Source of the DNA: Synechococcus sp.
Lineage (GTDB): Bacteria > Cyanobacteriota > Cyanobacteriia > Thermostichales > PCC-7336
Assembly: GCA_051439425.1 (NCBI GenBank)
Contig: JBFRWD010000126.1
Span: 1 to 31,529 of the forward strand
Length of the DNA: 31,529 nucleotides
Reading direction: 5' to 3'
The translations under genes and the position numbers were made by a program. This document shows, piece by piece, positions 8,958 through 21,074 of the stretch. Every line of letters starts with the position of its first letter. Position 1 is the first letter of the stretch. The notes under the pieces were generated by a model. It saw nothing but the letters and a program-made list of their open reading frames with translations, was not told the origin of the DNA and ran no database searches.

Positions 8958-9150
8958 GAGAGGGGCTCAGAAAATGAGCGGCATTGAAAGCTGAAGATTC
9001 CTAGCCAGGCTGACTGCAACGTCTTTGTGCAGAGGTAGCATCAACCGAAGTCAGCTTGACGAACTATTATTCTAGGAATGAGATAGCTTGTTGAGTATCA
9101 CATCCAAAATTGCAGGCCACAGTAGCTCCGGAATTCAGAGGCGATCGCGC

Positions 9151-10134
9151 ATGTTGAGTAGAGTCGCAGACTCCATTTACTGGCTCAATCGCTATATCGA
9201 GCGGGCCGAGAATGTGGCGCGATTTGTGGATGTCAATCTCAATTTGATGCTCGACTTGCCGTCGGAAATTTCCTCCCAGTGGCAGCCCTTGGTGTCGATC
9301 ACGGGCGATCTGGACCTCTATAAAGATATCTACGGCGATATCACATCCGACAACGTGATTCGCTTCTTAACGCTGGAGGAGGAATACCCCAATTCCATCC
9401 TGTCCTGCTTGATCAAAGCTCGCGAAAATGCCCGCTCCTGCCGCGAAACTATTTCCTCCGAGATGTGGGAAGAGGTCAACGGGTTTTACCACATGGTCAA
9501 GGGTGCCTCCCCCCAACAATCCCTCGACTATCTCCCCAGTTTTTGCAGCCAGGTCAAGCTGAAAAGCCACCAGTTTTGTGGAGTCATGGATTCCACGATG
9601 GCCCATAACGAAGGGTGGCATTTTGGGCAGTTGGGCCGACTGTTGGAACGGGCAGATAAAACCACCAGAATGTTGGATGTTAAGTACTTCTTGCTGTTGC
9701 CCTCAGCCCAATGGGTGGGGACCCCTCTCGATCAAGTTCAGTGGATTTCGTTGCTGAAATCTGCTAGCGCTTACGAGATGTACCGCAAGTGTCAGCATAA
9801 AATTGCTCCCGAGACTATTGCCGATTTCTTAGTGCTCGATCGCCAGTTCCCTCGCTCCATTTACTTCTGTCTCAAGCAAGCGGAAAACCACTTACACAGC
9901 ATCACCAACACCCCAGTGGGGACCTGGTGTAACGGAGCGGAGCGGGCATTAGGAAAACTCTGCTCTGAATTGGGATATATCGTGATTGCCGACGTGATTG
10001 ACACCGGGCTGCACGAATTTTTGGATGGACTGCAAAGCGCCATCAACACCATCGACGATCGCATTTACACGACGTTTTTATCGGTAGACAAATCCCGCTA
10101 TCTGCAGCCAACGTGGGGAAAAATCTCGCAGTAG
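9151..10134 (+). CDS. Alpha-E domain protein
   Basis: Family-typical start MLSRVADSIYWLNRYIERAEN (ATG 9151 preferred over TTG 9088); ARENAR; LGRLLERADKTTR; FPRS. Confidence 0.92.
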   Translation: MLSRVADSIYWLNRYIERAENVARFVDVNLNLMLDLPSEISSQWQPLVSITGDLDLYKDIYGDITSDNVIRFLTLEEEYPNSILSCLIKARENARSCRETISSEMWEEVNGFYHMVKGASPQQSLDYLPSFCSQVKLKSHQFCGVMDSTMAHNEGWHFGQLGRLLERADKTTRMLDVKYFLLLPSAQWVGTPLDQVQWISLLKSASAYEMYRKCQHKIAPETIADFLVLDRQFPRSIYFCLKQAENHLHSITNTPVGTWCNGAERALGKLCSELGYIVIADVIDTGLHEFLDGLQSAINTIDDRIYTTFLSVDKSRYLQPTWGKISQ

Positions 10135-10247: not shown

Positions 10248-11132
10248 ATGCTCTATCAGATTTGCCACCAGACAACGTACTCTTACAGTCAACCGGTTCT
10301 CCTCAAACCCCACATCCTCAACCTACGCCCCCAGAGCAATAGCTGGCAGCACGTGCGAAGTTGTTCCATTCAGGTATCACCCTCTCCAGAATCACGCTCC
10401 AACTACACCGATTTAGATGGCAATAGTCCGATCAAGCTGTGGTTTGCTCAACCCACCCAATCGTTGAGTGTTCAAGTCACTTCCACTGTCGAAACTCTGC
10501 AATCCAATCCCTTCCTGTTTTTGCTGGAACCGTGGGCGATCGCTCTCCCCTTCAACTATCCTCAGTCTCTGCAATCCAGACTGTCCAGCTACCTACAGCC
10601 CCTCACCCCATCCATTCACCCTGCCGTTGTGGAGCTGGCCCATACGCTGCTACATAAAGTCGACGCCCAACCGCTGGACTTTCTCAACACGCTCAATCAG
10701 CACATCAATCAGTCCTGCACCTATATTCATCGCGCCACCGGTCGCCCTTGGTCTGCCGGAATGACATGGACTCAAAAGCAAGGCTCCTGTCGAGATTTGT
10801 GCGTTCTCTTTATGGAAGTCTGTCGACAAGTGGGGCTGCCTACGCGGTTTACGAGCGGATATCAGGAGGGAGATCCGGACGCCGCCAATGACCTACACGC
10901 TTGGGTGGAGGTGTATTTACCAGGGGCTGGCTGGCGAGGATACGACCCAACGTTGGGATTGGCGGTGAGCGATCGCCATGTCACTCTCAGCGCATCGGCT
11001 CTTCCACAAGACGCAGCACCCATCATTGGCACATTTATTCCAATCGATCCGGTCGAGCACAGAAAATCACCAGTCAATTCATCTATAAAGGCGCAAATTC
11101 TATTAGAAGTGATGTCTCAGTCCAATCAGTAG
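10248..11132 (+). CDS. Transglutaminase-like protein with bacterial transglutaminase N-terminal domain
   Basis: MLYQICHQTTYSY start (ATG 10248); catalytic triad in GSCRD, HAWVEVYLPGAGW and GYDPT. Confidence 0.92.
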   Translation: MLYQICHQTTYSYSQPVLLKPHILNLRPQSNSWQHVRSCSIQVSPSPESRSNYTDLDGNSPIKLWFAQPTQSLSVQVTSTVETLQSNPFLFLLEPWAIALPFNYPQSLQSRLSSYLQPLTPSIHPAVVELAHTLLHKVDAQPLDFLNTLNQHINQSCTYIHRATGRPWSAGMTWTQKQGSCRDLCVLFMEVCRQVGLPTRFTSGYQEGDPDAANDLHAWVEVYLPGAGWRGYDPTLGLAVSDRHVTLSASALPQDAAPIIGTFIPIDPVEHRKSPVNSSIKAQILLEVMSQSNQ

Positions 11133-11207
11133 AAATGACATCTGGTGTGCTGATTTAGTCAGCGATATCCATATTGGTCACTTCCTGCCAGCTTTTGAAT
11201 TGCTTGC

Positions 11208-11529
11208 TCATCGTTTCGCGATATTCAGTTGCTGTGAGTTCGTGTTGATTTGTACCTCAACTTTGTCCAAATGCCATTTTTCAGAAGGCTTTGGACATCG
11301 TCGACTTAGTTGTTTGGCATAGAACTGAACGAACTTGCGGCACCAGTAGCGGATGACTTCATAAGTTACGCTGATGCTGCGATAGTTAATCATCTTCTCG
11401 ATATCTCGGTAGCTCAGAGAAAACCTGTAGTATAGCCAGACACAGTACGCGACGATCTCGGAGGGGAAGCGATGACGCTTGTAACTGATGCTCATCCTCA
11501 AAGCCTCACACAGAGTGGATTGCAATGCC
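11208..11529 (-). mobile_element. Truncated IS6-family element (N-terminal transposase fragment from ATG 11495)
   Basis: YKRHRFPSEIVAYCVWLYYRFSLSYRDIE...YEVIRYW...KWHLD is the IS6 transposase N-terminus; similarity breaks just after WHLD. A degenerate end GGCATTGCAA starts at 11529 on the minus strand. Confidence 0.85.
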
Positions 11530-11561
11530 GATGAGTTAACTCGTCAATCCCCCCAAATAGC

Positions 11562-11726
11562 TCATCGCCAATTACTACCTTCTGTTTGATCTAAGATGCC
11601 TTTCCAAATAGTGAAATCAGAGCTATCAACAATCTTGGGTAAATTCTCATTTCTACTTAGCCCACCAACAATGACTTCAGCTTCAGTCTCAGAAAGTTCG
11701 AGCCAAATAGGAGTTGTCTTGTCCAT
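11562..11726 (-). CDS. Double-glycine-leader precursor peptide P1 (54 aa; not in ORF track)
   Basis: Hand translation: MDKTTPIWLELSETEAEVIVGG | LSRNENLPKIVDSSDFTIWKGILDQTEGSNWR*. The leader matches the C39-cleaved GG consensus. Confidence 0.8.
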   Translation of the reverse strand: MDKTTPIWLELSETEAEVIVGGLSRNENLPKIVDSSDFTIWKGILDQTEGSNWR

Positions 11727-11868
11727 TGGAGTAGCAGAAAACGCATCAATAACAACCTATGGCGACGGTTGCCTGCAGGCAGTGATGACTGTCACAGTCC
11801 TGCATTGAGCCCTGTCACCGCGCCATCAGGATATCTGCCACAAACTGGTACATAGTTTCCGGATTAAA

Positions 11869-12251
11869 GTGGTGTACTTTCAAGAATTTAAGACTACTGA
11901 ACTGTTTGGAGAGCTTAACAAAAATCAAGCTGAAATAATACAAGATGGCTGCAATATTGGTATGCCACCAACAGTTAGAAAAACTGATGAAAACCACGAT
12001 AAGTAGATTGATGCACTAAGCATTGATTGGGGCTAGATTCCCAAGCTAAGTTGCTTCCAGCGTTGATCCTGACCATTGAATTCTTTCTCGGAAAAACCTC
12101 GCCGATACCTGGCACCGGACACTTCCCTGAAACTGGTGTTTTTCTCGTTCCCCAATCTTTTCTCAAGGCTACAGTTGATTTAATACTGAAGCCTTGTTTG
12201 TTTGCGATGGTCACCTCTCTTGGTCTCCCAGCATTGCCAAAACTGTGCTGA
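11869..12251 (+). pseudogene. Degraded double-glycine-leader precursor P2
   Basis: VVYFQEFKTTELFGELNKNQAEIIQDG | CNIGMPPTVRKTDENHDK*IDALSIDWG. GG is changed to DG (GAT at 11944), there is a TAG at 12004, and a probable 1-nt deletion in the G-run at 12029-12032 would join it to the ORF-track frame 12027-12251. Confidence 0.65.
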
Positions 12252-12385
12252 ATACGTGGAGACAGAGAGCATTTGATTGTCGTGGAAGACTCTCGGTCAG
12301 GTGCTGAGAAATCTGAAGGGGGGCGTCCACCTTTGCTGCGCTGTAATGAAGCTTTTCAAAGTTCTACGCGACTCTCTAGATATTT

Positions 12386-12416
12386 CCTTATCATGTTAGA
12401 TAAGGGTTTAAGGAGG
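12386..12416 (+). promoter_or_regulatory. Inverted repeat CCTTATC-N6-GATAAGG followed by the AGGAGG ribosome-binding site of P3
   Basis: Palindrome at 12386-12405; AGGAGG at 12411-12416, 5 nt before GTG 12422. Confidence 0.5.
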
Positions 12417-12421
12417 TTTCC

Positions 12422-12655
12422 GTGAGTGTAGATTTGTTGATTCAAGATATATCTGAAGTTGATGCCGAGAAAGTTTCAGGTGGATTGTTACTGCCGGCAG
12501 TTCAAGCTGCGAGAGAGGCTGCGAGAAGGGCTCCTGTACGTAGCCGTGGTTTTGGAGCCTTTTCGATTAAGGTAGTTCGTCGTATTGCCGAGAGTGGCTT
12601 GAGAGATGGGGCGCAGAGGTTTGTCGTCTGGTTTGGAGACAGTCCTGCGCATTGA
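12422..12655 (+). CDS. Double-glycine-leader precursor peptide P3 (77 aa)
   Basis: Strong RBS plus GTG start; leader LLIQDISEVDAEKVSGG; core starts LLLPAVQAAREAARR. Confidence 0.85.
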   Translation: MSVDLLIQDISEVDAEKVSGGLLLPAVQAAREAARRAPVRSRGFGAFSIKVVRRIAESGLRDGAQRFVVWFGDSPAH

Positions 12656-12743
12656 TGATTAAAGGACAAAACCTTAAAAAGGAAAGGTGTGGGGTTAGTA
12701 GGATAAACATCCCAAAACGAATCCCCCATGAAGGAGGTGGACC

Positions 12744-12881
12744 GGCATTGTCAACTTAAATTTTCTGGTAAGAGATAGTCGAGAATGAATGCATTGAGTC
12801 AGCGAGAGAATAGACTTTGCAGAAGATGAATTGAAATTCTTCTAAATAACAAGGACTGTTCTTAGTTAAGTTGACAGTGCC
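12744..12881. mobile_element. 138-bp miniature IS6-type element (MITE)
   Basis: 16-bp terminal inverted repeats GGCATTGTCAACTTAA (12744-12759) and TTAAGTTGACAGTGCC (12866-12881), 15/16 match, IS6-like ends; no transposase and no flanking duplication. Confidence 0.8.
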
Positions 12882-13217
12882 TCTAGAACGACTCGAAGCA
12901 CAAGTCCAAGAACTTCAAGCCATCAAAGGCTTACAAACGGGTACTCAAGACGTACCGGTATAACTAGTTATAACTATCCAACCTGAGTTGAAAGACAAAG
13001 GCATACGTCATAACGACCTGTTCGATAAGAAAGGCTGGTCTGGCAGCAACGTAGCCAGTGGCGTGCAGAGGAAAGGTACGCCAGTCAGTTGAGTCAATAG
13101 GGACCAAGACCGATTAGACAAAGGTACCGAGAGACTCGCAAAAGAGGGTGTGGCATCCTCCAGTACAAGACCAAAGTTAGCTGCGTTGAAAGGTGGTTAC
13201 TACTTCAAGCAGACTAG

Positions 13218-13451
13218 TCAAAAAAAGTGAAAGTTGTTGTAGTTGAAGTAGACACGGTCTTTCGGGAGTCGCGTACTAAAGGACTCACCAAAAGAGTAGC
13301 TGAAAGCCTTGCGGTAGAAGAAGTTGTCCGGCGTTCTAGTCTGCTGCTGTCTCTTTCTGGCACGCCTTAAACGCCTTACACCACCGCCGGAGATAAATTG
13401 TGCAGAACACTCATCTATGTCCTCGAAGAGGGCAAGTTTGTTATTGGGCAT
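13218..13451 (-). CDS. Double-glycine-leader precursor peptide P4 (77 aa), co-oriented directly downstream of hlyD
   Basis: Leader MPNNKLALFEDIDECSAQFISGG; cationic and aromatic core; 76 bp after the HlyD stop. Confidence 0.85.
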   Translation of the reverse strand: MPNNKLALFEDIDECSAQFISGGGVRRLRRARKRQQQTRTPDNFFYRKAFSYSFGESFSTRLPKDRVYFNYNNFHFF

Positions 13452-13527
13452 AGCCTAAACTTGAATTCTGCTTCTAGATAGCAATAATGCTAGCACCGCC
13501 AATTAAAAGGTTTTGTTGCTGGGGTCA

Positions 13528-14904
13528 TCAAAAATTACTCAGTAGCCTTGCTCGTCTGAGGATAAAGCTCATGACAGACTCTCTGTCGGTCTCAATATCG
13601 AGCCGTCCCTCCATGCCGGGCTGAATTGAACACCTTCGACCTTGGGATATCATTTCCAAAACGGTTGGTTGTATTTGGACTTTGTAGAAGCCATCGGAAA
13701 TCGTAGAAGCACTGCTATCTTGCGGCCCTTCTCCAGCATTCAATATCGACACATCTGGAGCGATTGAGGATACAGTCCCTTGCAGCGTTCCAAAGTCTGG
13801 ATATGGACAGCTGCTGACTCTCATCTGCCCTGTTTGTCCTATCTCCAGCCAATTAATATCGCGGGATGCCACGTAAGCTTCAATCACAAGCTCCGTATTT
13901 GCAGGGGCAATTGTGGCAATTTCCTCTCCTCTCTCAACGACTTGATCGATATTCCTTAAATTCAGCTGCTGGATAATTCCCCCTATAGGTGCTCTCACCA
14001 CCGTCTTTTGTAAGTCATCTTCCACCTGCGCCAAATCATCTTCTTCCTGCAGAAGCAGCTCTTCTAACTCCAACTGTTCTTTTAATAAAGCCTCTCGCTC
14101 TCGCCTCAGTGCGGCCAAGTTCGCCAAATTGCTAGAGCGTATCTGTTCCAGTCGTTCGGATGCTCGGTTGACCGAAGACTCGCTGGGATTCAAAGCAGCT
14201 CTGGCTCTTTCTAAGCGTGCTAAAGCGGCATTGTAAGAAGCCTCCCGTTCCAGCACCTGTAATTGAGAGACTCCACCGGATTGGGCTAGCTGTTGGTAAC
14301 GCTGATATTCTTCTCTGGCTAATTCAACTTCTGCCTCCACCGCATCCATATCTGCTTGAGTCACTAACTGACGCTCGCGGAAGTCTCTTTGTTCGAGTTC
14401 CAGCTCGGCCTGATAAGCAGCCGCATCGCGCTCTGCTGCCTCTGTTTGAGCCTCAATCTGCCCATCGAGAGTATCCAACTCACCGCTGAGACGCTCTAAC
14501 TGTTCTCGGCCTCTCTCTAAGCTGGTTTCCAACTGTCGTTGCCTGGTGAGTAATTGAGAGTCATCGATGGTCACCATCACATCTCCTCTTTCAACACGTT
14601 GATTTTCCTCGACGGCAATCTGTTCGACAGTTCCTTCTGCAGTCGCTTGAACCAGCCGTAAATCTCCAGCGGGTCGAATCCTCCCAGTTGCCTGCACGGT
14701 AACCCGATACGGCAAAACGGCAGAGAGCCCGACGGCTCCTACAAATCCGATTAACATGGCAAGCCCCCCTACAGTGGGCCATTGACCGATGGGAGGGAGA
14801 AAATCCCCAACGGCAGCTGGAGGCGCTAGCGCCGGTTCATCCGTTGGATCTAACAGCTGGTAGGAGACGTCGTAAGTGTGCTCTTCTTGTTCGTTACGTT
14901 CCAT
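13528..14904 (-). CDS. HlyD-family membrane fusion (periplasmic adaptor) protein
   Basis: Single TM helix; lipoyl-like halves (VEENQRVERGD, VRAPIGG); long coiled coil; YPDFGTLQG; IQPGM. Confidence 0.93.
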   Translation of the reverse strand: MERNEQEEHTYDVSYQLLDPTDEPALAPPAAVGDFLPPIGQWPTVGGLAMLIGFVGAVGLSAVLPYRVTVQATGRIRPAGDLRLVQATAEGTVEQIAVEENQRVERGDVMVTIDDSQLLTRQRQLETSLERGREQLERLSGELDTLDGQIEAQTEAAERDAAAYQAELELEQRDFRERQLVTQADMDAVEAEVELAREEYQRYQQLAQSGGVSQLQVLEREASYNAALARLERARAALNPSESSVNRASERLEQIRSSNLANLAALRREREALLKEQLELEELLLQEEDDLAQVEDDLQKTVVRAPIGGIIQQLNLRNIDQVVERGEEIATIAPANTELVIEAYVASRDINWLEIGQTGQMRVSSCPYPDFGTLQGTVSSIAPDVSILNAGEGPQDSSASTISDGFYKVQIQPTVLEMISQGRRCSIQPGMEGRLDIETDRESVMSFILRRARLLSNF

Positions 14905-14906
14905 CT

Positions 14907-17054
14907 TTATCCCCCAGGCAAAAAGGCACGATGGTCACCCGGTCTATCTCGTAATTCTTTAGGAGTTCCCCGCAGTTTCAGCTCGCCTTTGTCTAACAAA
15001 ACGATATAGTCTGCCCTCTGCACCACACTTGGTCGATGGCTGATCAGAATGGTTGTCTTCCCTTGTCGAAACTTCAGCAAGCGGTCTAACACTTTAGACT
15101 CGGAGACGGGGTCTAGAGCCCCTGTTGCTTCGTCCAAAATAAGAACTGGCGGATTAATCACCAAAGCTCTGGCAATCGCCAATCGTTGCTTTTGTCCTCC
15201 GGAGATATTGGCTCCAAACTCACCCAATACCGTCTTGTATTTATTCGGCAACTCGCAAATAAACTCATCTGCCATGGCAATCCGACAGACTCCGACCACC
15301 TGCTCTAGGGTAATGCCGGGATAAGCCAGTCTGAAATTATCGAAGATGCTCCGACTCCAGAAATGGGGCTCTTGAGAAACGAGAACCACCTGTTTTCGAA
15401 GACTGCTGAGTGCGATGTCCGCTTGATTGAAATGGCCGAAGCGAATGTTTCCAGCCTGAAGTTCGTATAACCCTGCCAACAGCTTGGCTAATGTACTTTT
15501 CCCGCATCCGGACTGTCCCACTAAAGCCGTAACTTTCCCTCCAGGAATGAGCAGGTCGAAATCTTTGAGCAAGGAAACCCGACCGGCATGGTGAAAATTC
15601 AGCTTCGAACAAACGATATCCCCATCTTCGGCAATCCGGACTCGAGAACTAGGGTCATCACCAGATTGTTCGGGGTTTGCATCCAATACTTCACCGAGAC
15701 GTTGAACGGCGACTTGAGCGATCACAAACTCATCGATTAACCCAACAGACAGAGCAAGGAATGCGAGGAAGTTTCCACTCATTCCATTGAATGCAATGAG
15801 CTGTCCAATGCTGAGCTGGCCACCAATCACAAAGTAGCTACCCATCCACAGCAGAGCAATCGTAATCAGACTGGATATAAATTCCGTCAGGGTGGAGCTG
15901 TAGAGATTGAGTTTGGTGGTTATCCACTGGAGGTTGGCCAACCGTCCGAAATTGAGCTGATACTCATCCCATACTTGAGGAGTGGCAGACGAAGTTTTCA
16001 GAACCATCGCCCCTCGAAAGGTTTCAACGAGGAATCCTTGGTTCTCGGAACTTTCGACAATGAGTTGACGATTCTTCTGTCTCAAGGCGGGTAGAAATAG
16101 CAAATTCAGCCCCCCCATCAATCCAAAAGCTAGTAGGGAAGCGATGGTTAATTTCCAGCTGTAGAGAAACATCAAGCCTACTGAGACGAGCGCCACGAAT
16201 AGCTGGCTGGGAAGCCCCAACACTAACTCGGCAACAAATTCATTTATCAGCCGAACATCCGCCAACCGGCTGACCACTTCTCCACTTCGATGCGAATCAA
16301 AGTAAGACAAGGGAAGTCTGAGCAGTTTGTAACCATAGTCGAGAGTTAACCCCAGCTGTAATCGCTGGCCAAATTGTCCGATCAAGTGGGCTTGCGCTAA
16401 CCCTATAGCTGTACGGAACACGTTCATCCCGATAATGGCCGTGGCGACGGTGAAGAGCAGCTGTGTGTCTCGACGAACCAGGACGTCGTCGGTGAGCAAT
16501 TGCATGGCCACTGGCATGGCCAAAGCCAGTAGACCAATGGCGACATTGATAGCGATTGCTTCCAACAGGATCTGACGATAGGGCCAGACTCGTCTGGCAA
16601 AGCGACCAACAGTGCTGACGGTGTCCTCCAACTGTTCGTAGAATCGTTCCTCATCGGGTAGCAGCAGCAACATCACACCGTTGTTCCACCCCTCCACCAA
16701 TTGCTGCCTGGTGAGGGACCTCAGACCGTGAGCGGGATCGGCGACGATGTATTTCTGACGTTTTTTCCCGTATAGAACTACCCAGTGCTGACCTTTCCAG
16801 TGCAGAACAGCAGGGAGAGGCGCTTCTTCAATCCGATCGACTAATTCGGGCTGGGCTTGGACATGACGGGCATTAAACCCTAATGTTTCAGCACCTCGTT
16901 TCAATCCCAGCAGAGTTGTTCCTTGAGTGCCCGTTCCTACAGCCTCGCGAGTACGAGTGAGGGAAAAAGTTCGACCGTAGAACTTCGCTACTGTGGCCAA
17001 ACACGCAGCTCCACAATCCTCTTCACTTTGTTGGCGTACTACTGGGTATTGCAT
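14907..17054 (-). CDS. Peptidase C39 domain-containing ABC transporter (PCAT, SunT/LagD type)
   Basis: QQSEEDCGAACL (catalytic Cys), HWKGQHWVV (His), ADP; TM domain; Walker A GQSGCGKST, signature ISGGQKQR, Walker B LILDE. Confidence 0.95.
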   Translation of the reverse strand: MQYPVVRQQSEEDCGAACLATVAKFYGRTFSLTRTREAVGTGTQGTTLLGLKRGAETLGFNARHVQAQPELVDRIEEAPLPAVLHWKGQHWVVLYGKKRQKYIVADPAHGLRSLTRQQLVEGWNNGVMLLLLPDEERFYEQLEDTVSTVGRFARRVWPYRQILLEAIAINVAIGLLALAMPVAMQLLTDDVLVRRDTQLLFTVATAIIGMNVFRTAIGLAQAHLIGQFGQRLQLGLTLDYGYKLLRLPLSYFDSHRSGEVVSRLADVRLINEFVAELVLGLPSQLFVALVSVGLMFLYSWKLTIASLLAFGLMGGLNLLFLPALRQKNRQLIVESSENQGFLVETFRGAMVLKTSSATPQVWDEYQLNFGRLANLQWITTKLNLYSSTLTEFISSLITIALLWMGSYFVIGGQLSIGQLIAFNGMSGNFLAFLALSVGLIDEFVIAQVAVQRLGEVLDANPEQSGDDPSSRVRIAEDGDIVCSKLNFHHAGRVSLLKDFDLLIPGGKVTALVGQSGCGKSTLAKLLAGLYELQAGNIRFGHFNQADIALSSLRKQVVLVSQEPHFWSRSIFDNFRLAYPGITLEQVVGVCRIAMADEFICELPNKYKTVLGEFGANISGGQKQRLAIARALVINPPVLILDEATGALDPVSESKVLDRLLKFRQGKTTILISHRPSVVQRADYIVLLDKGELKLRGTPKELRDRPGDHRAFLPGG

Positions 17055-17893
17055 TTGTTCTGCAAAACTTGGAAAATTTTTCGTAGCGAATTGTCTGTCG
17101 ACATATCAAACTTTACAACCTTGCAGCAGTTTGAAATTGTTCCAGAACAGCTTTAGCATAAGCGCTGTTTACAGTACATAGAAAGCGGCGCAAGAAGGGG
17201 AAGTCATCAAGAGAAATACTCCTGGTATCGACACATAAGTTAATCTCAAAAACAATATCCATAGCAGGTATTCAACTGCCTTTTTGTTCACATAGACTTT
17301 CCAAACCTCGTAGAGCATCTTGGGCATTCATGCCTTACGGGTATGGTCTGACAGAAAGATAATTAATACTATAAGCGTTCCTCCTCGTTGCTCAGTCGAG
17401 AAAAAACCGCGTTTATCTAGGTTCAAATAGAACTTATTGCCAGCAACAGAGGTCTTGCAAAAAAAGGCCTTACTGCTGATTTTGTGAGGGGTATTTATCA
17501 TGAATTTACCATCAGGTTCAAATTAGATGCTCAACTCAAGCAATTAAAGGTTTATTTCATACAGCAGAGTAGTCGGAAACATTTGTAACGCATAGCTTTA
17601 GGAACAAGAATTGTTCTATGGATAGCTGTTCAAGCCTTGAATTGAATAACCAGCTTGCAATTAGACAGTGGAGTTTTGTTGAGACAAAAGACGACGTAGC
17701 TTCAATTGCAAATAATACTCCAACCCAGAAACTGCTTTTCAAGCCGGAAAGAAAGATTTATCACCAAATTCATGCCCCCCCAGTACCATTTGTCCTATTT
17801 GTTACTCCTATCTCAGAAAACACTTGATTTGCGGCAGATTCCCAGTAGACATCAAAGGGATTGACCGTACCCAATTTCACACCTCCATTCGTT

Positions 17894-19120
17894 ATGTCAA
17901 AGGAGCGTCTAATGAACATTAGGCCCAGAGTCCAGAAAGTCACGCTTGCCCTCTTACTGTTCGGAATGGGCTTGGGTAGTGGCGTCTGGCTTAAGGATGT
18001 CCCCCAGGCGACTCATGCCCAATCTATACCGACCGATCGGTCTACAGAAACAGCCGAAGTCGAGACCGAGGCACCGACGGACATCACCAATACCAATTTC
18101 ATCGCCAAGGTCGTGAATGAAGTTGGGCCTGCAGTAGTCAGCATTGATGCGACTAGAGTTGTCGAAGCATCAGGCTTCTCCTCATCCGAAAATCCATCAT
18201 TCAACGATCCAATGCTTCGAAGATTCTTTGGGGAGCTGCCCCAAGAGAATAGAGAGTATCGCCAACAAGGCAAGGGATCGGGATTTATCACCAGTGCAGA
18301 CGGCAAAATCGTCACCAATGCCCACGTTGTAGAAGGTGCTGAAGAGGTTACGGTGACGTTGAAAGATGGCCGTACTTTTCCAGGCCAAGTATTGGGTGCC
18401 GATCCACTCACCGATATTGCGCTCATTAAAATCGATGCCACAGATCTGCCGACAGTCACCCTAGGTGATTCCGATGCGGTGAATGCTGGAGACTGGTCGA
18501 TCGCGATCGGCAATCCGCTGGGCCTCGACAGCACTGTCACTTCAGGGATTATCAGCGCTGTAGGGCGCTCTCCCAGCGAGGTAGGGATTAGTGACAAGCG
18601 CGTACGCTTCTTACAAACCGATACGGCCATCAACCCCGGTAATTCGGGCGGCCCGTTGCTGGACGCCTCCGGCAAGGTGATTGGCGTCAACACTGCGATC
18701 TTAAAAGGAGCGAACGGATTGGGCTTTGCTGTTCCCATCAATACGGCGGCAAATATTGTTCGCCAACTGGAAGCATCCGGCAAGGTCGAACATACCTACT
18801 TGGGCATCGAAATGGTAGAGCTAAGTCCTACTCTGCAAGAGCAAGTTAATAACGATCCCAACAGTGGCTACTATATCGAACAAGATGAGGGGATTCTCGT
18901 GCGGAATGTGGCACCGGATTCTCCCGCAGCTCGGGCCGGTCTGAGAGCGGGTGATGTGATTACCCACATCGGTGAAGACAAAATTGTGACCGCCGAGCAA
19001 GTGCAGGAAGAGGTGTTTACATCTGCGGTAGGCCAGACTCTCGACTTGAAAGTAGAGCGAAATGGTCAGAGCCAGGAGCTTGAGGTGGTGACGGGCGCGT
19101 ATCCATCCGCTCAGAGCTAA
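17894..19120 (+). CDS. HtrA/DegP-family (HhoA/HhoB-like) serine protease with one PDZ domain
   Basis: TNAHVV, DIALIK, INPGNSGGPL triad; N-terminal TM or signal; C-terminal PDZ (SPAARAGLRAGDVI). Start may instead be ATG 17912. Confidence 0.93.
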   Translation: MSKERLMNIRPRVQKVTLALLLFGMGLGSGVWLKDVPQATHAQSIPTDRSTETAEVETEAPTDITNTNFIAKVVNEVGPAVVSIDATRVVEASGFSSSENPSFNDPMLRRFFGELPQENREYRQQGKGSGFITSADGKIVTNAHVVEGAEEVTVTLKDGRTFPGQVLGADPLTDIALIKIDATDLPTVTLGDSDAVNAGDWSIAIGNPLGLDSTVTSGIISAVGRSPSEVGISDKRVRFLQTDTAINPGNSGGPLLDASGKVIGVNTAILKGANGLGFAVPINTAANIVRQLEASGKVEHTYLGIEMVELSPTLQEQVNNDPNSGYYIEQDEGILVRNVAPDSPAARAGLRAGDVITHIGEDKIVTAEQVQEEVFTSAVGQTLDLKVERNGQSQELEVVTGAYPSAQS

Positions 19121-19243
19121 GTTACGGGAGCTTCCAGTCGTGCACTGAATAAGGCTGGGCCTTCGCCACTTTGCTCGGCGCTGTAGTCTGAAGCCCCCGC
19201 AATTTGCGCTTAGTGCCGCGACACATTCCCCGTAGTTTGAATA

Positions 19244-19265
19244 CCCCGCTCCGCAAAGGGCGGGG
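19244..19265. other. GC-rich hairpin between convergent genes; resembles an IS200/IS605 right-end palindrome on the minus strand
   Basis: CCCCGCTC-CGCAAA-GGGCGGGG; minus strand reads AGCCCCGCCCTTTGCGGAGCGGGGTATTCAA. Confidence 0.4.
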
Positions 19266-19300
19266 CTATTTCCTTTGAAATCGCAGTCAAGCAGACATCC

Positions 19301-19405
19301 TATAGCGCTAGGCAATCCGCTACGGAGAATTCTCCACTCATTTCGCCTTGTAGATTAAGGCTTTGAGCTGTCCTCGTACTCCAGACTTTACAGCGAATTG
19401 CTATA
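19301..19405 (+). repeat. Dispersed ~105-bp MITE-like repeat, copy A
   Basis: TATAGCGCTAGGCAATCCGCTAC...CAGCGAATTGCTATA; aligns without gaps to 22311-22414. Confidence 0.8.
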
Positions 19406-19425
19406 AGTCTTCGAGCTATCTATTG

Positions 19426-20103
19426 CTATAGATCTCCTTCGCTCCCCGTGTAGAAAACGTTCACCACTGTTTCGCCATCTGTATCGACAACGCATTCCCA
19501 AGGCGCTTCAGCACCGGCTACCTCGACTCGGACACTGGTGCCAGATTCTGCGCGATCGACACCAATCGTTGAGACATCTCCCACGCCGGTTTCATTGGCC
19601 ACTGCCGCAAGACAGTTTGACTCGGCGGGACTGACTCCGTTGGCACTAGTGCTGGCGCCACTGCTAGCAGTACTTGCTCCAATGGTGACTGACACCGTAT
19701 ATCCAACTGTTTTATCGGTGTCGCGGTCATTGCCCATCAGGTATACACGAATCGTGTAGTCACCATCCTGCGGCAGAGTGATTTCTCCGTATCTGTCAGC
19801 ACTCATAGAACCATTGAAAATAGCCTCTCCATCACTACCGGGGGGCAAGATGTTGAAGTAGGCAGTCCCATTTCCGTTAGTTGCATCGACAGTGAGAGCC
19901 ACCGACATCACCTGACCGCCGTTGGCGCGCAACACATAGTCAAAATATTCCTGCCCGGAGATGGTTCCATTTAAATTGGCCGAGTCGCTGCCGGGCTGAA
20001 ATTGAACGGTTGAGGTCAACTGGGCTAGCGATGGCTGCAAGGGGAAGACTATGGGGGCACTGAGAAACGCGCACAACAGTGAAGCTCTAGCAACGGTAAG
20101 CAT
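19426..20103 (-). CDS. Secreted hypothetical protein with a PPC-like beta domain and a small Cys-pair C-terminal domain
   Basis: Signal peptide from ATG 20103 (MLTVARASLL...SLA-Q); VQFQPG...DYVLRANGGQVM...LPQDGDYTIRVY; Ser-rich linker; C-terminal domain with two Cys. Confidence 0.75.
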   Translation of the reverse strand: MLTVARASLLCAFLSAPIVFPLQPSLAQLTSTVQFQPGSDSANLNGTISGQEYFDYVLRANGGQVMSVALTVDATNGNGTAYFNILPPGSDGEAIFNGSMSADRYGEITLPQDGDYTIRVYLMGNDRDTDKTVGYTVSVTIGASTASSGASTSANGVSPAESNCLAAVANETGVGDVSTIGVDRAESGTSVRVEVAGAEAPWECVVDTDGETVVNVFYTGSEGDL

Positions 20104-20207
20104 GGCAAACTCTTCGGTCAAGGGAGTACAGCTTGGGAAGATGGATCGGTATCCAGCTTTGCCATAGTGCCCTAGCCATACAGCGATCGGCAAAGCGATC
20201 GCCAATA

Positions 20208-21074
20208 TCAGAACAATAGATTCGTGAAGGCACGCCAAACTGCAATGTAGAAATTCCCTTCTGTTTCTCGGAACAGTTGAAAGGGGCTGTTGGGGGAACC
20301 AATGAAGGGGCGCAAGCGCCAAGCCAACTGCATTCCCACAATCGCGTACAACACAATCCAGACTCTGAGCAGGACGGTATTGAGAGACTGTCCCATCCGG
20401 CGAGATAGGTACAGACATCCGCGATAGAGATAGTTGACACCGTAGCTACCGCACAAGCCAAAGATCGCCACATGCATGAGCAACAAAAACGAGTAATTTT
20501 TAGTCGTCAGGGTAAAGAAAAAGGCGATCGGAGCCAGACTGGCCATCATGATTGACATCGCCCCGAGAGAGGTCTGCATCAGAGCGATGGTTTGGTAAAA
20601 GCGAAACTTTTGGCCGAATAAAATATTGAAGATATACAGAGATGGCAAGCAAATCGCCATCGTCAAGTTGAGCAACAGCGGCAGTTTGATGGCGGAGGAC
20701 GTCATCAGCAGAAAGCTGTGATTCATGCCCATTGTTGTGCCGTATAGCCCAGCTAGTGCTGCACTGAGAACGGACATCGAAATGATGATGCGCTTTAAAT
20801 CTTTTTGGCTGTAAATCTGTTCGAATAAAACCGTTTGGGCACGCAGAACATAGTCGAGGAAGTAAAAGGCCAGACGCAGCAGTCCCCGCTTGTGAATAGC
20901 ATTTCGCAGGATGGCAATTTCATCTTGTGTGGGCCGTTTGGCTGACCATTCGGCTTTTGTCAGAGCCTTCGCTGGAGACGGAGGAGGAGGGGGAGAGGGA
21001 TGGGGTTGCCCGTGTTGGAGTGAACCATTGATGGCAGGGCGATCGCTTTGGTTTTGCAGTAAGTTGTCTGGCAC
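20208..21074 (-). CDS. Conserved cyanobacterial multi-pass membrane protein
   Basis: About five TM segments; SSAIKLPLL, ICLPSLY, QLAWRLRPFIG, GNFY motifs; Pro-rich N-terminus. Confidence 0.8.
   Translation of the reverse strand: MPDNLLQNQSDRPAINGSLQHGQPHPSPPPPPSPAKALTKAEWSAKRPTQDEIAILRNAIHKRGLLRLAFYFLDYVLRAQTVLFEQIYSQKDLKRIIISMSVLSAALAGLYGTTMGMNHSFLLMTSSAIKLPLLLNLTMAICLPSLYIFNILFGQKFRFYQTIALMQTSLGAMSIMMASLAPIAFFFTLTTKNYSFLLLMHVAIFGLCGSYGVNYLYRGCLYLSRRMGQSLNTVLLRVWIVLYAIVGMQLAWRLRPFIGSPNSPFQLFRETEGNFYIAVWRAFTNLLF

Follow-up and report, generated by a model that had tools for sequence, protein, structure and literature searches.

A cyanobacterial island encoding a PCAT exporter and small peptides that may mimic planctomycete envelope-protein motifs

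We analysed a 31,529-nucleotide stretch of DNA (the window) from a cyanobacterial metagenome-assembled genome (MAG) recovered from marine sediment (G000), the place of the contig in the bin resting on flanking-gene identity and GC content. On the minus strand, positions 14,907–17,054 encode a 715-residue PCAT in which Pfam identifies a C39 peptidase (PF03412, Peptidase_C39; E = 1.4e-34), an ABC transmembrane domain (PF00664, ABC_membrane) and an ATPase (PF00005, ABC_tran). The protein aligns over its full length with PCAT1 and ComA (residues 2–701 with PCAT1, PDB 4RY2), and it is the only protein in the assembly that phmmer matches to this C39 domain. A 458-residue HlyD-family membrane-fusion or adaptor protein is encoded at 13,528–14,904 on the same strand (Pfam HlyD_3, E = 5.2e-22, and HlyD_D23; 192 bits against TIGR01843, under the cut-off of 208.65). 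Both reading frames are intact, and the exporter described in the earlier note, with its double-glycine-leader precursors, is present as reported.

The whole system sits in a strain-specific island of about 9.2 kb with approximate boundaries (11,023–20,218; blastn). Synteny with a genome of the same genus (G003; L123) extends up to position 11,023 and resumes from 20,218, with only ~220 bp between, so that the cassette is missing there; synteny with a second genome of the genus (G001) likewise stops near 10,982. That genome has only the PCAT and HlyD genes in common (75% nucleotide identity), at a different location, and the peptides are not shared. Outside the island, the flanking gene at 9,088–10,134 has orthologues that are 90, 83 and 73% identical in same-genus genomes. 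GC content of the 11–13 kb region is 0.44–0.45, versus 0.51 for the genome, and a 105-residue fragment of an IS6-family transposase, its N-terminal part only, lies at 11,208–11,525 on the minus strand (NCBIfam NF033587 transpos_IS6, E = 2.5e-20, profile positions 1–81 of 202). The island also contains, at 17,861–19,120 on the plus strand, an HtrA/DegP-like serine protease with a PDZ domain (Pfam Trypsin_2, E = 6e-36; PDZ_2, E = 6e-17); no similarly sized open reading frame was listed at two orthologous cyanobacterial loci. Scanning of the neighbouring genes between 9 and 20 kb gave an Alpha-E protein, a transglutaminase-like protein, the IS6 fragment, the HtrA-like protease and one unknown but no modifying enzyme, in agreement with the earlier observation that the locus lacks a RiPP-modifying enzyme.

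Beside the exporter are three intact peptide genes with double-glycine leaders and one decayed copy, where four precursor genes had been proposed. The first, p1 (11,562–11,726, minus strand), encodes a 54-residue precursor with the leader end ELSETEAEVIVGG and a 32-residue core, and no homologue of near length was found for it. The 77-residue precursor p3 (12,422–12,655, plus strand) combines the leader end DISEVDAEKVSGG with a 56-residue core, starts at a GTG 5 nt downstream of a Shine-Dalgarno-like AAGGAGG (12,410–12,416, plus strand) and has small-peptide relatives in database and genome searches. Directly downstream of hlyD, p4 (13,218–13,451, minus strand) encodes another 77-residue precursor, with the leader end DIDECSAQFISGG and a basic core of 54 residues; no homologue was found at E ≤ 1e-3 among 1.84 billion representatives. 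The remaining frame, p2 (11,869–12,006, plus strand; 45 residues from GTG, leader end IIQDG), probably represents a decayed precursor copy because it carries DG instead of GG and offers only a GTG start, with no ATG.

The leaders of p1, p3 and p4 exceed what chance would produce. A generic double-glycine pattern, drawn up from a consensus with the peptides already known, matched 209 times in the six-frame open reading frames of the genome, and three matches fall within 2.2 kb at the locus versus 0.096 expected (Poisson P = 1.4e-4). The three leaders can also be aligned, right up to the GG at which they end, with those of peptides encoded next to orthologous PCATs in other cyanobacteria, and in 22 of 72 comparisons at most 1 of 300 shuffles attained the real score. 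The p1 leader aligns with those at PCAT loci of Microcoleus, Elainella, G009 and G024 (0–1 of 300 shuffles), that of p3 with L012a, L028a, L028d, L032a and L032c, and that of p4 with L017a (score 59) and others; p2 gave one weak alignment (L012a; score 36, 0 of 300 shuffles). Resemblance among the four leaders is loose: with leave-one-out HMMs built from three sequences, p2, p3 and p4 fell outside the top 8 of ~118,000 open reading frames, and p1 ranked 7th with an E value of 7.1. The frames and leader ends given for the four genes were correctly read, but the common leader end holds only loosely among them and p2 departs from it at the DG.

The p3 core begins, from its first residue, with 15 residues that reproduce verbatim the stem motif invariant in DUF1559 pseudopilin-like proteins (12,485–12,529, plus strand). 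This family is vastly expanded in Planctomycetes, and its stem motif is alpha-helical. The 15-mer, directly after GG, occurs exactly in 10 of 20 DUF1559 paralogues of Aeoliella, and the p3 core scores 23.4 bits against an HMM of these paralogues, a value reached by none of 2,000 shuffles (maximum, 7.5), which bears out the DUF1559 motif recognised earlier. A 12-residue pattern of the motif was found in 1 of 401 genomes of the phylum Cyanobacteriota, the producer itself, and in none of the 400 others searched; five planctomycete genomes contained 44, 23, 2, 0 and 0 copies, the two highest counts being from Pirellulales. A DNA pattern spanning the join of GG and motif matched the window a single time and none of 100 shuffles. 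PF07596 (DUF1559), the family whose signature motif p3 reproduces exactly, has no match in the producer's genome. The 41-residue p3 tail has no DUF1559 signal and no database relative.

The 12-residue stretch is under purifying selection. The DNA of the p3 motif differs from that of other carriers at 8–15 of 36 nucleotides, all synonymous, and ten carriers of the identical stretch show a mean of 9 differences in 36, again every one synonymous. Codons of the p3 motif are AT-rich, unlike the planctomycete copies.

Resemblances of p1 and p4 to two other planctomycete envelope-protein motifs are suggestive only, being short matches of about 16–17 residues and 10–11 bits. A p1 core segment, KIVDSSDFTIWKGILDQ (11,586–11,636, minus strand), resembles a dockerin-like repeat located ahead of the PEP-CTERM anchors in Aeoliella: its 29 weak matches all fall on this dockerin-like module in a single Aeoliella genome (G429), an HMM built from 25 members that p1 had not retrieved gives the core 10.5 bits (reached by 0 of 5,000 shuffles), and the p1 frame ranks 8th of 117,993 in the genome; the single-sequence E value of 0.065 is not significant. 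The dockerin-like likeness noticed earlier stands at the level of the motif and goes no further. In p4, the C-terminal segment LPKDRVYFNYNNFHFF (13,221–13,268, minus strand) resembles the motif ..NNSALPxDRVYxxYNxFxN.. of an uncharacterised planctomycete family, with best matches at homologous positions in two planctomycete genomes. An HMM built from three members that p4 had not retrieved gives the core 11.4 bits (reached by 1 of 5,000 shuffles), and the p4 frame ranks 2nd of 117,993. The family was picked post hoc from five genomes, and its p-values are uncorrected for other families open to a match; the single-sequence E value of 0.6 is not significant.

The cores are mutually unrelated, as had been claimed, and cores at the PCAT loci of relatives are also unrelated. 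Neither Pfam nor NCBIfam matched any core in the window, and the Hcp and tail-tube motifs suggested earlier were not found there with these libraries. A peptide with the first strand of Hcp is present at the orthologous locus of Elainella. Nor is each core a mosaic of several motifs: each has one recognisable motif plus unexplained sequence, and no match accounts for the p3 tail, the greater part of p1 and p4 or any of p2.

The design in which a double-glycine leader is joined directly to the motif recurs at 21 other loci (7 of 9 metagenome loci and 14 of 20 genome loci) in Cyanobacteria, Alphaproteobacteria, Acidobacteriota, Hydrogenedentota, Planctomycetota and Verrucomicrobiota. Carriers comprise Microcoleus, Elainella, Erythrobacter, Sandarakinorhabdus, two alphaproteobacterial MAGs, two Acidobacteriota, two Hydrogenedentota, a member of the Gemmataceae, a member of the Verrucomicrobiota and two unassigned records. 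The comparison proposed earlier shows this recurrence beside exporters: exporter genes are present in the fetched flanks of 10 of the 21 loci and C39 domains in those of five, many of the exporter-less contigs being only 1–4 kb, and in Microcoleus and Elainella close orthologues of the PCAT adjoin LLLPAVQ peptides. The motif has either the 15-residue form of p3 or a variant ending in -KVREAAAR, is fused to the leader at exactly the same point and starts at DUF1559 HMM position 28 in all 43 catalogued entries, which are partly redundant.

In some members of the family the motif is the whole core, and in others (L030, L033, L035, L036 and P0009) further DUF1559 blocks follow collinearly in native order. 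These include a 13-residue block in L035 and L036 (54–55 bits), ITDGTSNT in L030 and GDGSVRF in L033 and P0009, and the tail of P0009 matches TIGR04294 (E = 0.0013). We conclude that p3 belongs to an apparently undescribed peptide family spanning several phyla. PF07596 had no match in 8 of 10 producer genomes tested (positive control, 114), and the Hydrogenedentota producers have 54 and 16 DUF1559 copies. Peptides of this kind are also carried by Gemmataceae and Verrucomicrobiota, from phyla that own DUF1559 proteins, and a self-directed role is therefore possible.

As in characterised PCATs, the C39 domain would be expected to cut the precursors after GG, and the PCAT–HlyD pair would export unmodified cores of 32, 56 and 54 residues. 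No RNA run was found to contain the stretch, a result that bears neither way on transcription. Outside the producer, the cores may imitate conserved segments that serve assembly or recognition in envelope proteins of PVC-type neighbours and would interfere with, or exploit, the machinery that recognises these segments, in a bacteriocin-like, competitive role. Judging from sequence, we give a probability of roughly one in two to the reading that the strain-specific island encodes a PCAT exporter whose cargo mimics planctomycete envelope-protein motifs and probably acts on PVC-type neighbours. The cores may also form a library of captured fragments with a jamming function, as first suggested. 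Exact or near copies of an unrelated phylum's envelope-protein motifs in exported peptides hint at inter-bacterial molecular mimicry.

A possible, if doubtful, alternative is an ordinary hypervariable cluster resembling those of class II bacteriocins, with unmodified antimicrobial or membrane-active cores, in which the stem segment was kept as a useful amphipathic cationic helix, rather than for its likeness to pseudopilins, and the peptide family spread between phyla by horizontal transfer along with PCAT cassettes. PCAT/HlyD clusters whose cores vary widely are common in cyanobacteria, the cores at relatives' loci are indeed unrelated, and the cassette is mobile in the genus, as seen from the relocated PCAT and HlyD genes of G001 and the IS6 remnant in the island. 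However, helix propensity by itself hardly explains an identity at 15 of 15 stem residues with a fixed fusion point, further DUF1559-specific blocks occur in native order in other members, and the heavy divergence of synonymous sites without a residue change is tighter than generic amphipathicity needs.

It is unlikely that the peptides instead serve the producer, whether as secreted matrix or biofilm components, as signals or by modulating its own type IV pilus machinery. The producer does have type IV pilin-like genes, and a self-directed role would be natural in the DUF1559-bearing Hydrogenedentota that share the design; against this, the producer's own prepilins have different stems (for example, AVAVPTFLNQVRRSR), the motif is missing from the other Cyanobacteriota searched, and the locus is accessory, being missing from G003 and having no peptides in common with G001.

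That the small frames are non-functional debris, decaying or chimeric fragments on a degenerating mobile island with matches left over from transferred planctomycete DNA, would fit the adjoining transposase fragment, the decayed look of p2, the low local GC and the orphan status of p1 and p4, but is very improbable given the AT-rich codons and exclusively synonymous differences of the p3 motif, the strong Shine-Dalgarno at p3, the operon position of p4 after hlyD, the precise junction at 21 other loci across phyla and the intact PCAT and HlyD frames.

For the mimicry that we favour, no description of exported mimic peptides of such design was found in the literature searched. A producer-serving role likens the peptides to the GG-motif EbfG proteins of Synechococcus elongatus and finds some support in that species, where small proteins with a GG motif, exported by a PCAT, are reported to enable biofilm formation (PMC4997328).

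The exporter at the locus is a single 715-residue protein (PCAT, the C39-peptidase ABC transporter of the window; 14907-17054, minus strand; Peptidase_C39, ABC_membrane, ABC_tran) that combines an N-terminal C39 peptidase domain (PF03412, E = 1.4e-34, residues 3-134) with a transmembrane domain (PF00664) and a nucleotide-binding domain (PF00005) on one chain, according to Pfam. PCAT1, a bacteriocin transporter of solved structure (4RY2), aligns with residues 2-701 (E = 6e-107) and ComA with residues 9-703; HlyB aligned too. By eye, 'EEDCGAAC' (around residue 14) and 'GQHWVVL' (around residue 90) resemble what we take to be the C39 Cys/His motif. The match is at domain level only, with scores below the NCBIfam cut-offs for bacteriocin exporters (TIGR01193, 377.7 bits against 523.85; TIGR03796, 418.4 bits against 853.3). 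Within the assembly, phmmer with the C39 domain as query returned this gene as its sole match; other ABC proteins of ~1000 residues and ~30% identity are present elsewhere in the genome. Directly downstream lies a HlyD-family adaptor of 458 residues (13528-14904, minus strand; Pfam and NCBIfam), which passes Pfam HlyD_3 and HlyD_D23 and falls slightly below the TIGR01843 cut-off (192.2 bits against 208.65).

ORF calling confirmed the four small genes beside this pair, all at most 3.4 kb from the PCAT gene: p1 (54 aa, 11562-11726, minus strand), p2 (45 aa from a GTG, 11869-12006, plus strand), p3 (77 aa, 12422-12655, plus strand, its GTG start 5 nt downstream of AAGGAGG) and p4 (77 aa, 13218-13451, minus strand, 76 bp downstream of hlyD). 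The earlier note's further claim, that no RiPP-modifying enzyme accompanies them, also held: by Pfam and NCBIfam, the scanned neighbours comprise an Alpha-E protein, a transglutaminase-like protein, an IS6 transposase fragment (11208-11525, NCBIfam), HlyD, PCAT, an HtrA-like protein and one unknown, and include no LanM, cyclodehydratase, radical SAM or similar enzyme. Promoter and terminator sites between 11100 and 13700 were no more numerous than in shuffles. The sequencing runs listed for this stretch are DNA only, labelled marine sediment metagenome, and say nothing on expression.

The producer genome (4.8 Mb, 182 contigs, 96% complete) gave 13 phycobilisome-protein matches, which identify it as a cyanobacterium, and the gene immediately left of the locus has orthologues 90, 83 and 73% identical in three same-genus genomes, which ties the contig to this lineage; contamination or mis-binning was rejected on the closest of these orthologues. 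Synteny with one same-genus genome (G003) ends at ~11023 of the window and restarts at ~20218, two points separated by ~220 bp in G003, which places the whole system on a strain-specific island of ~9.2 kb together with a PDZ-domain protease of HtrA/DegP type (17861-19120, plus strand). A second same-genus genome (G001) has only PCAT and HlyD in common with it (75% nucleotide identity), at another location and with a different peptide. Judged from these comparisons, the cassette is mobile and its cargo exchanged. The protease was rejected as a conserved component, no ORF of similar size having been seen at the Microcoleus or Elainella loci. PDZ domains of the HtrA/DegP class bind C-terminal aromatic motifs, and p4, on the same island, ends in …FHFF.

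GG leaders are acidic, with GG (or GA/GS) at -2/-1 and hydrophobic residues at about -4, -7, -12 and -15. A generic pattern built from this consensus, after the peptides had been seen, is matched by p1, p3 and p4 and failed by p2, which has D at -2; of its 209 matches genome-wide, these three fall within 2.2 kb (0.096 expected, P = 1.4e-4). A regular expression derived from the four leaders has these four ORFs as its sole genome matches, a circular test. When HMMs of three leaders were used to recover the fourth among ~118,000 six-frame ORFs, p2, p3 and p4 ranked outside the top 8 and p1 came seventh (E = 7.1); on this test, the four leaders are alike only loosely. A further comparison paired each of the four window peptides with 18 GG-peptides that lie next to orthologous PCATs in seven other genomes of cyanobacteria. 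In 22 of the 72 pairs no more than one of 300 shuffles came up to the real score, with alignments that span the leader and end at GG (for example, LIQDISEVDAEKVSGG versus LIQDISESEASMIAGG, and LFEDIDECSAQFISGGG versus LFQDLDDSSLQTISGGG). Together, the generic pattern and the orthologous-locus alignments support the leaders as real. The common leader proposed previously stands for p1, p3 and p4 but not for p2 (DG), and its leave-one-out HMMs are weak. Among curated leader and bacteriocin models, the single match was of p1 to NF038167, the CTB family (E = 0.066), at 13.4 bits and so below the cut-off of 32, with none for p2-p4. We read p2 as a probable decayed copy because of its D at -2, its lack of an ATG and its single weak leader match.

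Other GG-leader peptides were seen elsewhere. The producer genome has three more GG-leader-like small ORFs far from the sole PCAT found (C11:4229-4498, C11:4745-4906 and C92:29984-30202), two of them in tandem at a contig end. Beside an orthologous PCAT in a genome of the same order (G024; locus L014, 2281-4441, minus strand) are three paralogous GG-leader peptides with a common hydrophobic C-terminal half (…GGLF), another core family in the same type of locus.

The core of p3 opens directly after GG with a 15-residue stretch identical at 15/15 positions to the stem of DUF1559 (PF07596) pseudopilin-like proteins, in which it is invariant (the stem motif, which includes LLLPAVQ). This bears out the suggestion that one core carries a DUF1559 motif. 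Database searches with p3 returned two types of match: fragments of DUF1559 (PF07963 + PF07596) proteins, in which the string follows the prepilin helix, and peptides of 57-78 aa in which an acidic GG leader is joined to the same string. For comparison, 20 DUF1559 genes of the planctomycete Aeoliella straminimaris have a consensus running from the stem region through ITDGTSNT to DGSVxF, with the 15-mer exact in 10 of them; against their HMM the p3 core scored 23.4 bits, and the best of 2000 shuffles reached at most 7.5. A 12-residue pattern from the motif has 44, 23, 2, 0 and 0 copies in five genomes of planctomycetes and occurs in only one of 401 Cyanobacteriota genomes, that of the producer, which has no PF07596 match (positive control Aeoliella, 114). 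The possibility that p3 copies the producer's own pilins was rejected, as their prepilin stems differ.

Beyond the stem, the likeness ends. The p3 tail (41 residues, 37-77) has no signal against the Aeoliella DUF1559 HMM and no relative among longer proteins. The prepilin G|FTLxE motif and hydrophobic N-terminal helix are missing (no N_methyl match), as are the SBP_bac_10 globular domain and the H-X9-DG C terminus (PF07596 and TIGR04294, no match at E <= 1). Compared with DUF1559/SBP_bac_10 proteins (PF07596, with the TIGR04294 C terminus), p3 and its related peptides have the stem, and the relatives also a 13-residue block and DGSVxF; in place of the cleavage motif, globular domain and C-terminal motif, p3 has a GG leader and a PCAT neighbour. 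By these sequence features, p3 is not a member of the DUF1559 family. A complex prediction that paired the p3 core with a DUF1559 protein of Aeoliella scored 0.00, which counts neither way.

For p1, the database search gave no near-length candidate, and p4 had no match at E <= 1e-3 among 1.84 billion representatives. Against the five planctomycete genomes, p1 produced 29 weak matches (E = 0.065-10) in Aeoliella alone, all on one module, a dockerin-like repeat ahead of PEP-CTERM anchors (for example, …LPNDPTPAIVDASDYAIWKDNFG…) present there in at least 150 copies. An HMM built on 25 members outside the p1 retrievals gave the p1 core 10.5 bits, which none of 5000 shuffles reached, and gave nothing for the other three cores; among the 117,993 ORFs of the producer genome, the p1 ORF ranks 8th against the module HMM. 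The dockerin-like motif claimed earlier stands as far as this module match, which lies in the helix-like half alone (IVDSSDFTIWK), but p1 has no PF00404 match in Pfam and no D-x-N-x-DG loop in its sequence. The best matches of p4, in two planctomycete genomes, fall at homologous positions of one uncharacterised family (NNSALPQDRVYLDYNYFHN versus LPKDRVYFNYNNFHFF in p4). An HMM built on three members of this family, all outside the p4 retrievals, scored the p4 core at 11.4 bits, reached by 1 of 5000 shuffles, and ranked the p4 ORF 2nd of 117,993; this family was picked post hoc, and for both p1 and p4 the matches are short and the single-sequence E-values not significant. The matches of p1 and p4 to planctomycete families are suggestive, and it is notable that p1, p3 and p4, which are all the intact cores, would then point to one phylum. 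In Aeoliella, the dockerin-like module takes the form of a double repeat with PEP-CTERM.

The union of a GG leader with the stem motif recurs in several phyla. A degenerate DNA search of metagenome contigs yielded nine loci, seven encoding small GG-leader peptides (contigs of 46-72% GC) and two ordinary DUF1559 genes. Among species-representative genomes, the peptide pattern GGLLLPAVQ matched 111 stretches, from which 20 loci were confirmed, 14 of them small GG-leader peptides. A degenerate DNA pattern for GG plus 14 residues had no match in genome contigs, which we read, given those 111 stretches, as a limit of the scan or of the stricter pattern rather than absence. The carriers are Microcoleus (two copies), Elainella, Erythrobacter, Sandarakinorhabdus, two alphaproteobacterial MAGs, two Acidobacteriota, two Hydrogenedentota, one Gemmataceae, one Verrucomicrobiota and two unassigned records. 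PF07596 was present in the two Hydrogenedentota and in none of the other 8 of 10 producer genomes tested. Source annotations name these peptides 'hypothetical protein' or leave them unnamed, and no Pfam or NCBIfam model covers them.

Two variants of the motif occur (-AAREAARR and -KVREAAAR), and in all 43 catalogued entries, which are partly redundant, it starts at the same DUF1559 HMM position, after GG or after GG plus 1-2 small residues. Some related cores consist of the motif alone (10-16 residues). Others continue with more DUF1559 blocks in native order: HMM residues 28-62 contiguously at loci L035 and L036 (54-55 bits), the ITDGTSNT block in two copies at L030, and the GDGSVRF block at L033 and in the peptide P0009, whose tail matches TIGR04294 (E = 0.0013). 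Exporter genes lie in the available flanks of 10 of 21 peptide loci, with a C39 domain at 5, and many contigs are too short to judge. These neighbours include PCATs with cNMP-binding domains on two metagenome contigs and, in Microcoleus and Elainella, close orthologues of the window PCAT and HlyD; recurrence of motifs beside homologous PCATs is the comparison that the earlier note had called for.

Several further proteins carry the motif in other settings. In P0014, P0018 and P0019, database proteins with the stem motif, it follows an ordinary N-terminal signal peptide; P0014 has two copies, and in P0018 and P0019 the motif comes after a GG-leader-like stretch ending in AAG. These proteins suggest a second, Sec-dependent display route. 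GGLLLPAVQ also lies in large proteins of a Solimonas MAG (L042, 5083-6066, 328 aa, with the motif repeated at the C-terminal end) and of Bhargavaea cecembensis (L045, 4213-6651, 813 aa). On metagenome contigs of 69-72% GC, the stem-motif peptides of L019, L021, L023, L026 and P0002-P0008 have a conserved tail, …KHGGEIEIESWSLG. At L021 and L026 the peptide gene adjoins an MTS/DUF7059 methyltransferase, and at L021 a PCAT that has two cNMP-binding domains lies ~3 kb away from it.

Hcp and tail-tube motifs, also proposed for the window cores, were not found there, and p1-p4 gave no Pfam match to Hcp (PF05638) at E <= 1. Beside the orthologous PCAT of Elainella saxicola, a GG-leader peptide (L032:5003-5311, minus strand) has a core beginning AAYLKFDGIDGEV, which aligns with the first strand in the Hcp domain of an Hcp-like protein from Aeoliella (Smith-Waterman score 63, reached by 0 of 3000 shuffles); Pfam detects nothing in the peptide. 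The Aeoliella protein (L102:997-1866, PF05638, E = 5.5e-7) resembles a surface-displayed Hcp fold, given its signal-peptide-like N terminus, dockerin-like repeat and PEP-CTERM anchor. The P0002-P0008 tail may resemble the second Hcp strand, but against two planctomycete Hcp-like proteins these tails gave no signal (1265 and 2823 of 3000 shuffles scored as high), and P0002 had no Hcp match in the PDB or Pfam.

By analogy with PCAT biology, the C39 domain would cut after GG and the cores would leave through PCAT and HlyD; the pattern of matches suggests that they would then act extracellularly by imitating conserved stretches of PVC-type envelope proteins, and the minimal cores suggest that activity resides in the stem motif. 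The most far-reaching version of this reading, to which we assign a tentative probability of about three in ten, is a cross-phylum 'motif-mimic' class: producers without DUF1559, Hcp or PEP-CTERM/dockerin proteins would export verbatim assembly segments through PCAT/HlyD and so sabotage the envelope machines of neighbours, PVC-type and other, or cap or exploit them, with the island holding three planctomycete-directed mimics. The cores might instead be plain amphipathic bacteriocins. They might also serve the producer itself as matrix or signal, as EbfG does in Synechococcus elongatus. Debris or recent import fares worst, as ten carriers of an identical 12-residue stretch differ on average at 9 of 36 nucleotides (window, 8-15) and every difference is synonymous, which argues for strong purifying selection on the peptide sequence and no recent DNA import.

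Under the mimicry reading, unrelated bacteria seem to have repeatedly placed the invariant DUF1559 stem behind an export leader and kept it intact under selection. If so, the stem probably serves as a recognition element for some machine that merits targeting, and the peptides would be a synthesisable probe with which to find that machine; DUF1559 is among the largest orphan families of Planctomycetes, with 114 matches in one Aeoliella genome. Mimicry of this kind would be ribosomal and unmodified, acting in interbacterial conflict. Some 'hypervariable' cores of the widespread PCAT peptide clusters would become decodable through the conserved motifs of other organisms' proteins, opening a route to bacteriocin targets and who-fights-whom relations straight from metagenomes.

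Darobactin is a RiPP of 7 residues that undergoes heavy modification by a radical SAM enzyme and binds BamA as a mimic of a substrate beta-strand. The window would share with it the concept of an exported ribosomal peptide that imitates a conserved client segment of an envelope-assembly machine, but has no modifying enzyme and has cores of 32-56 residues, and a functional likeness is speculation only. What appears new is a cargo that copies the signature motifs of another phylum and forms its own cross-phylum family, of which we found no account in the open-access full-text literature. Searches there for the stem motif or LLLPAVQ, and for double-glycine with Planctomycetes and pilin, returned nothing, those for H-X9-DG nothing relevant, and no DUF1559 paper concerned peptides by title or abstract.

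The EbfG1-4/PteB system of S. elongatus comprises small secreted GG-motif proteins that are reported to be needed for the biofilm of the producer itself (PMC4997328). It has in common with the window, by description, a cyanobacterial PCAT for several small GG-motif proteins, in EbfG with a non-antibiotic role, and differs in that EbfG acts on the biofilm of its own producer. Exporter and layout are well known from the cyanobacterial double-glycine 'bacteriocin' clusters of Wang et al. 2011, with a C39 ABC transporter, HlyD and short precursors (PMC3140520). The window resembles them in phylum, in its non-conserved cores and in its gene set of a short-type C39 ABC transporter, HlyD and several short GG-leader precursors. 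The accessible text of that paper describes diverse cores and unknown products and does not mention the copying of motifs from foreign families; unlike the clusters as described there, the window has a core with a verbatim DUF1559 stem, in a design that recurs across phyla.
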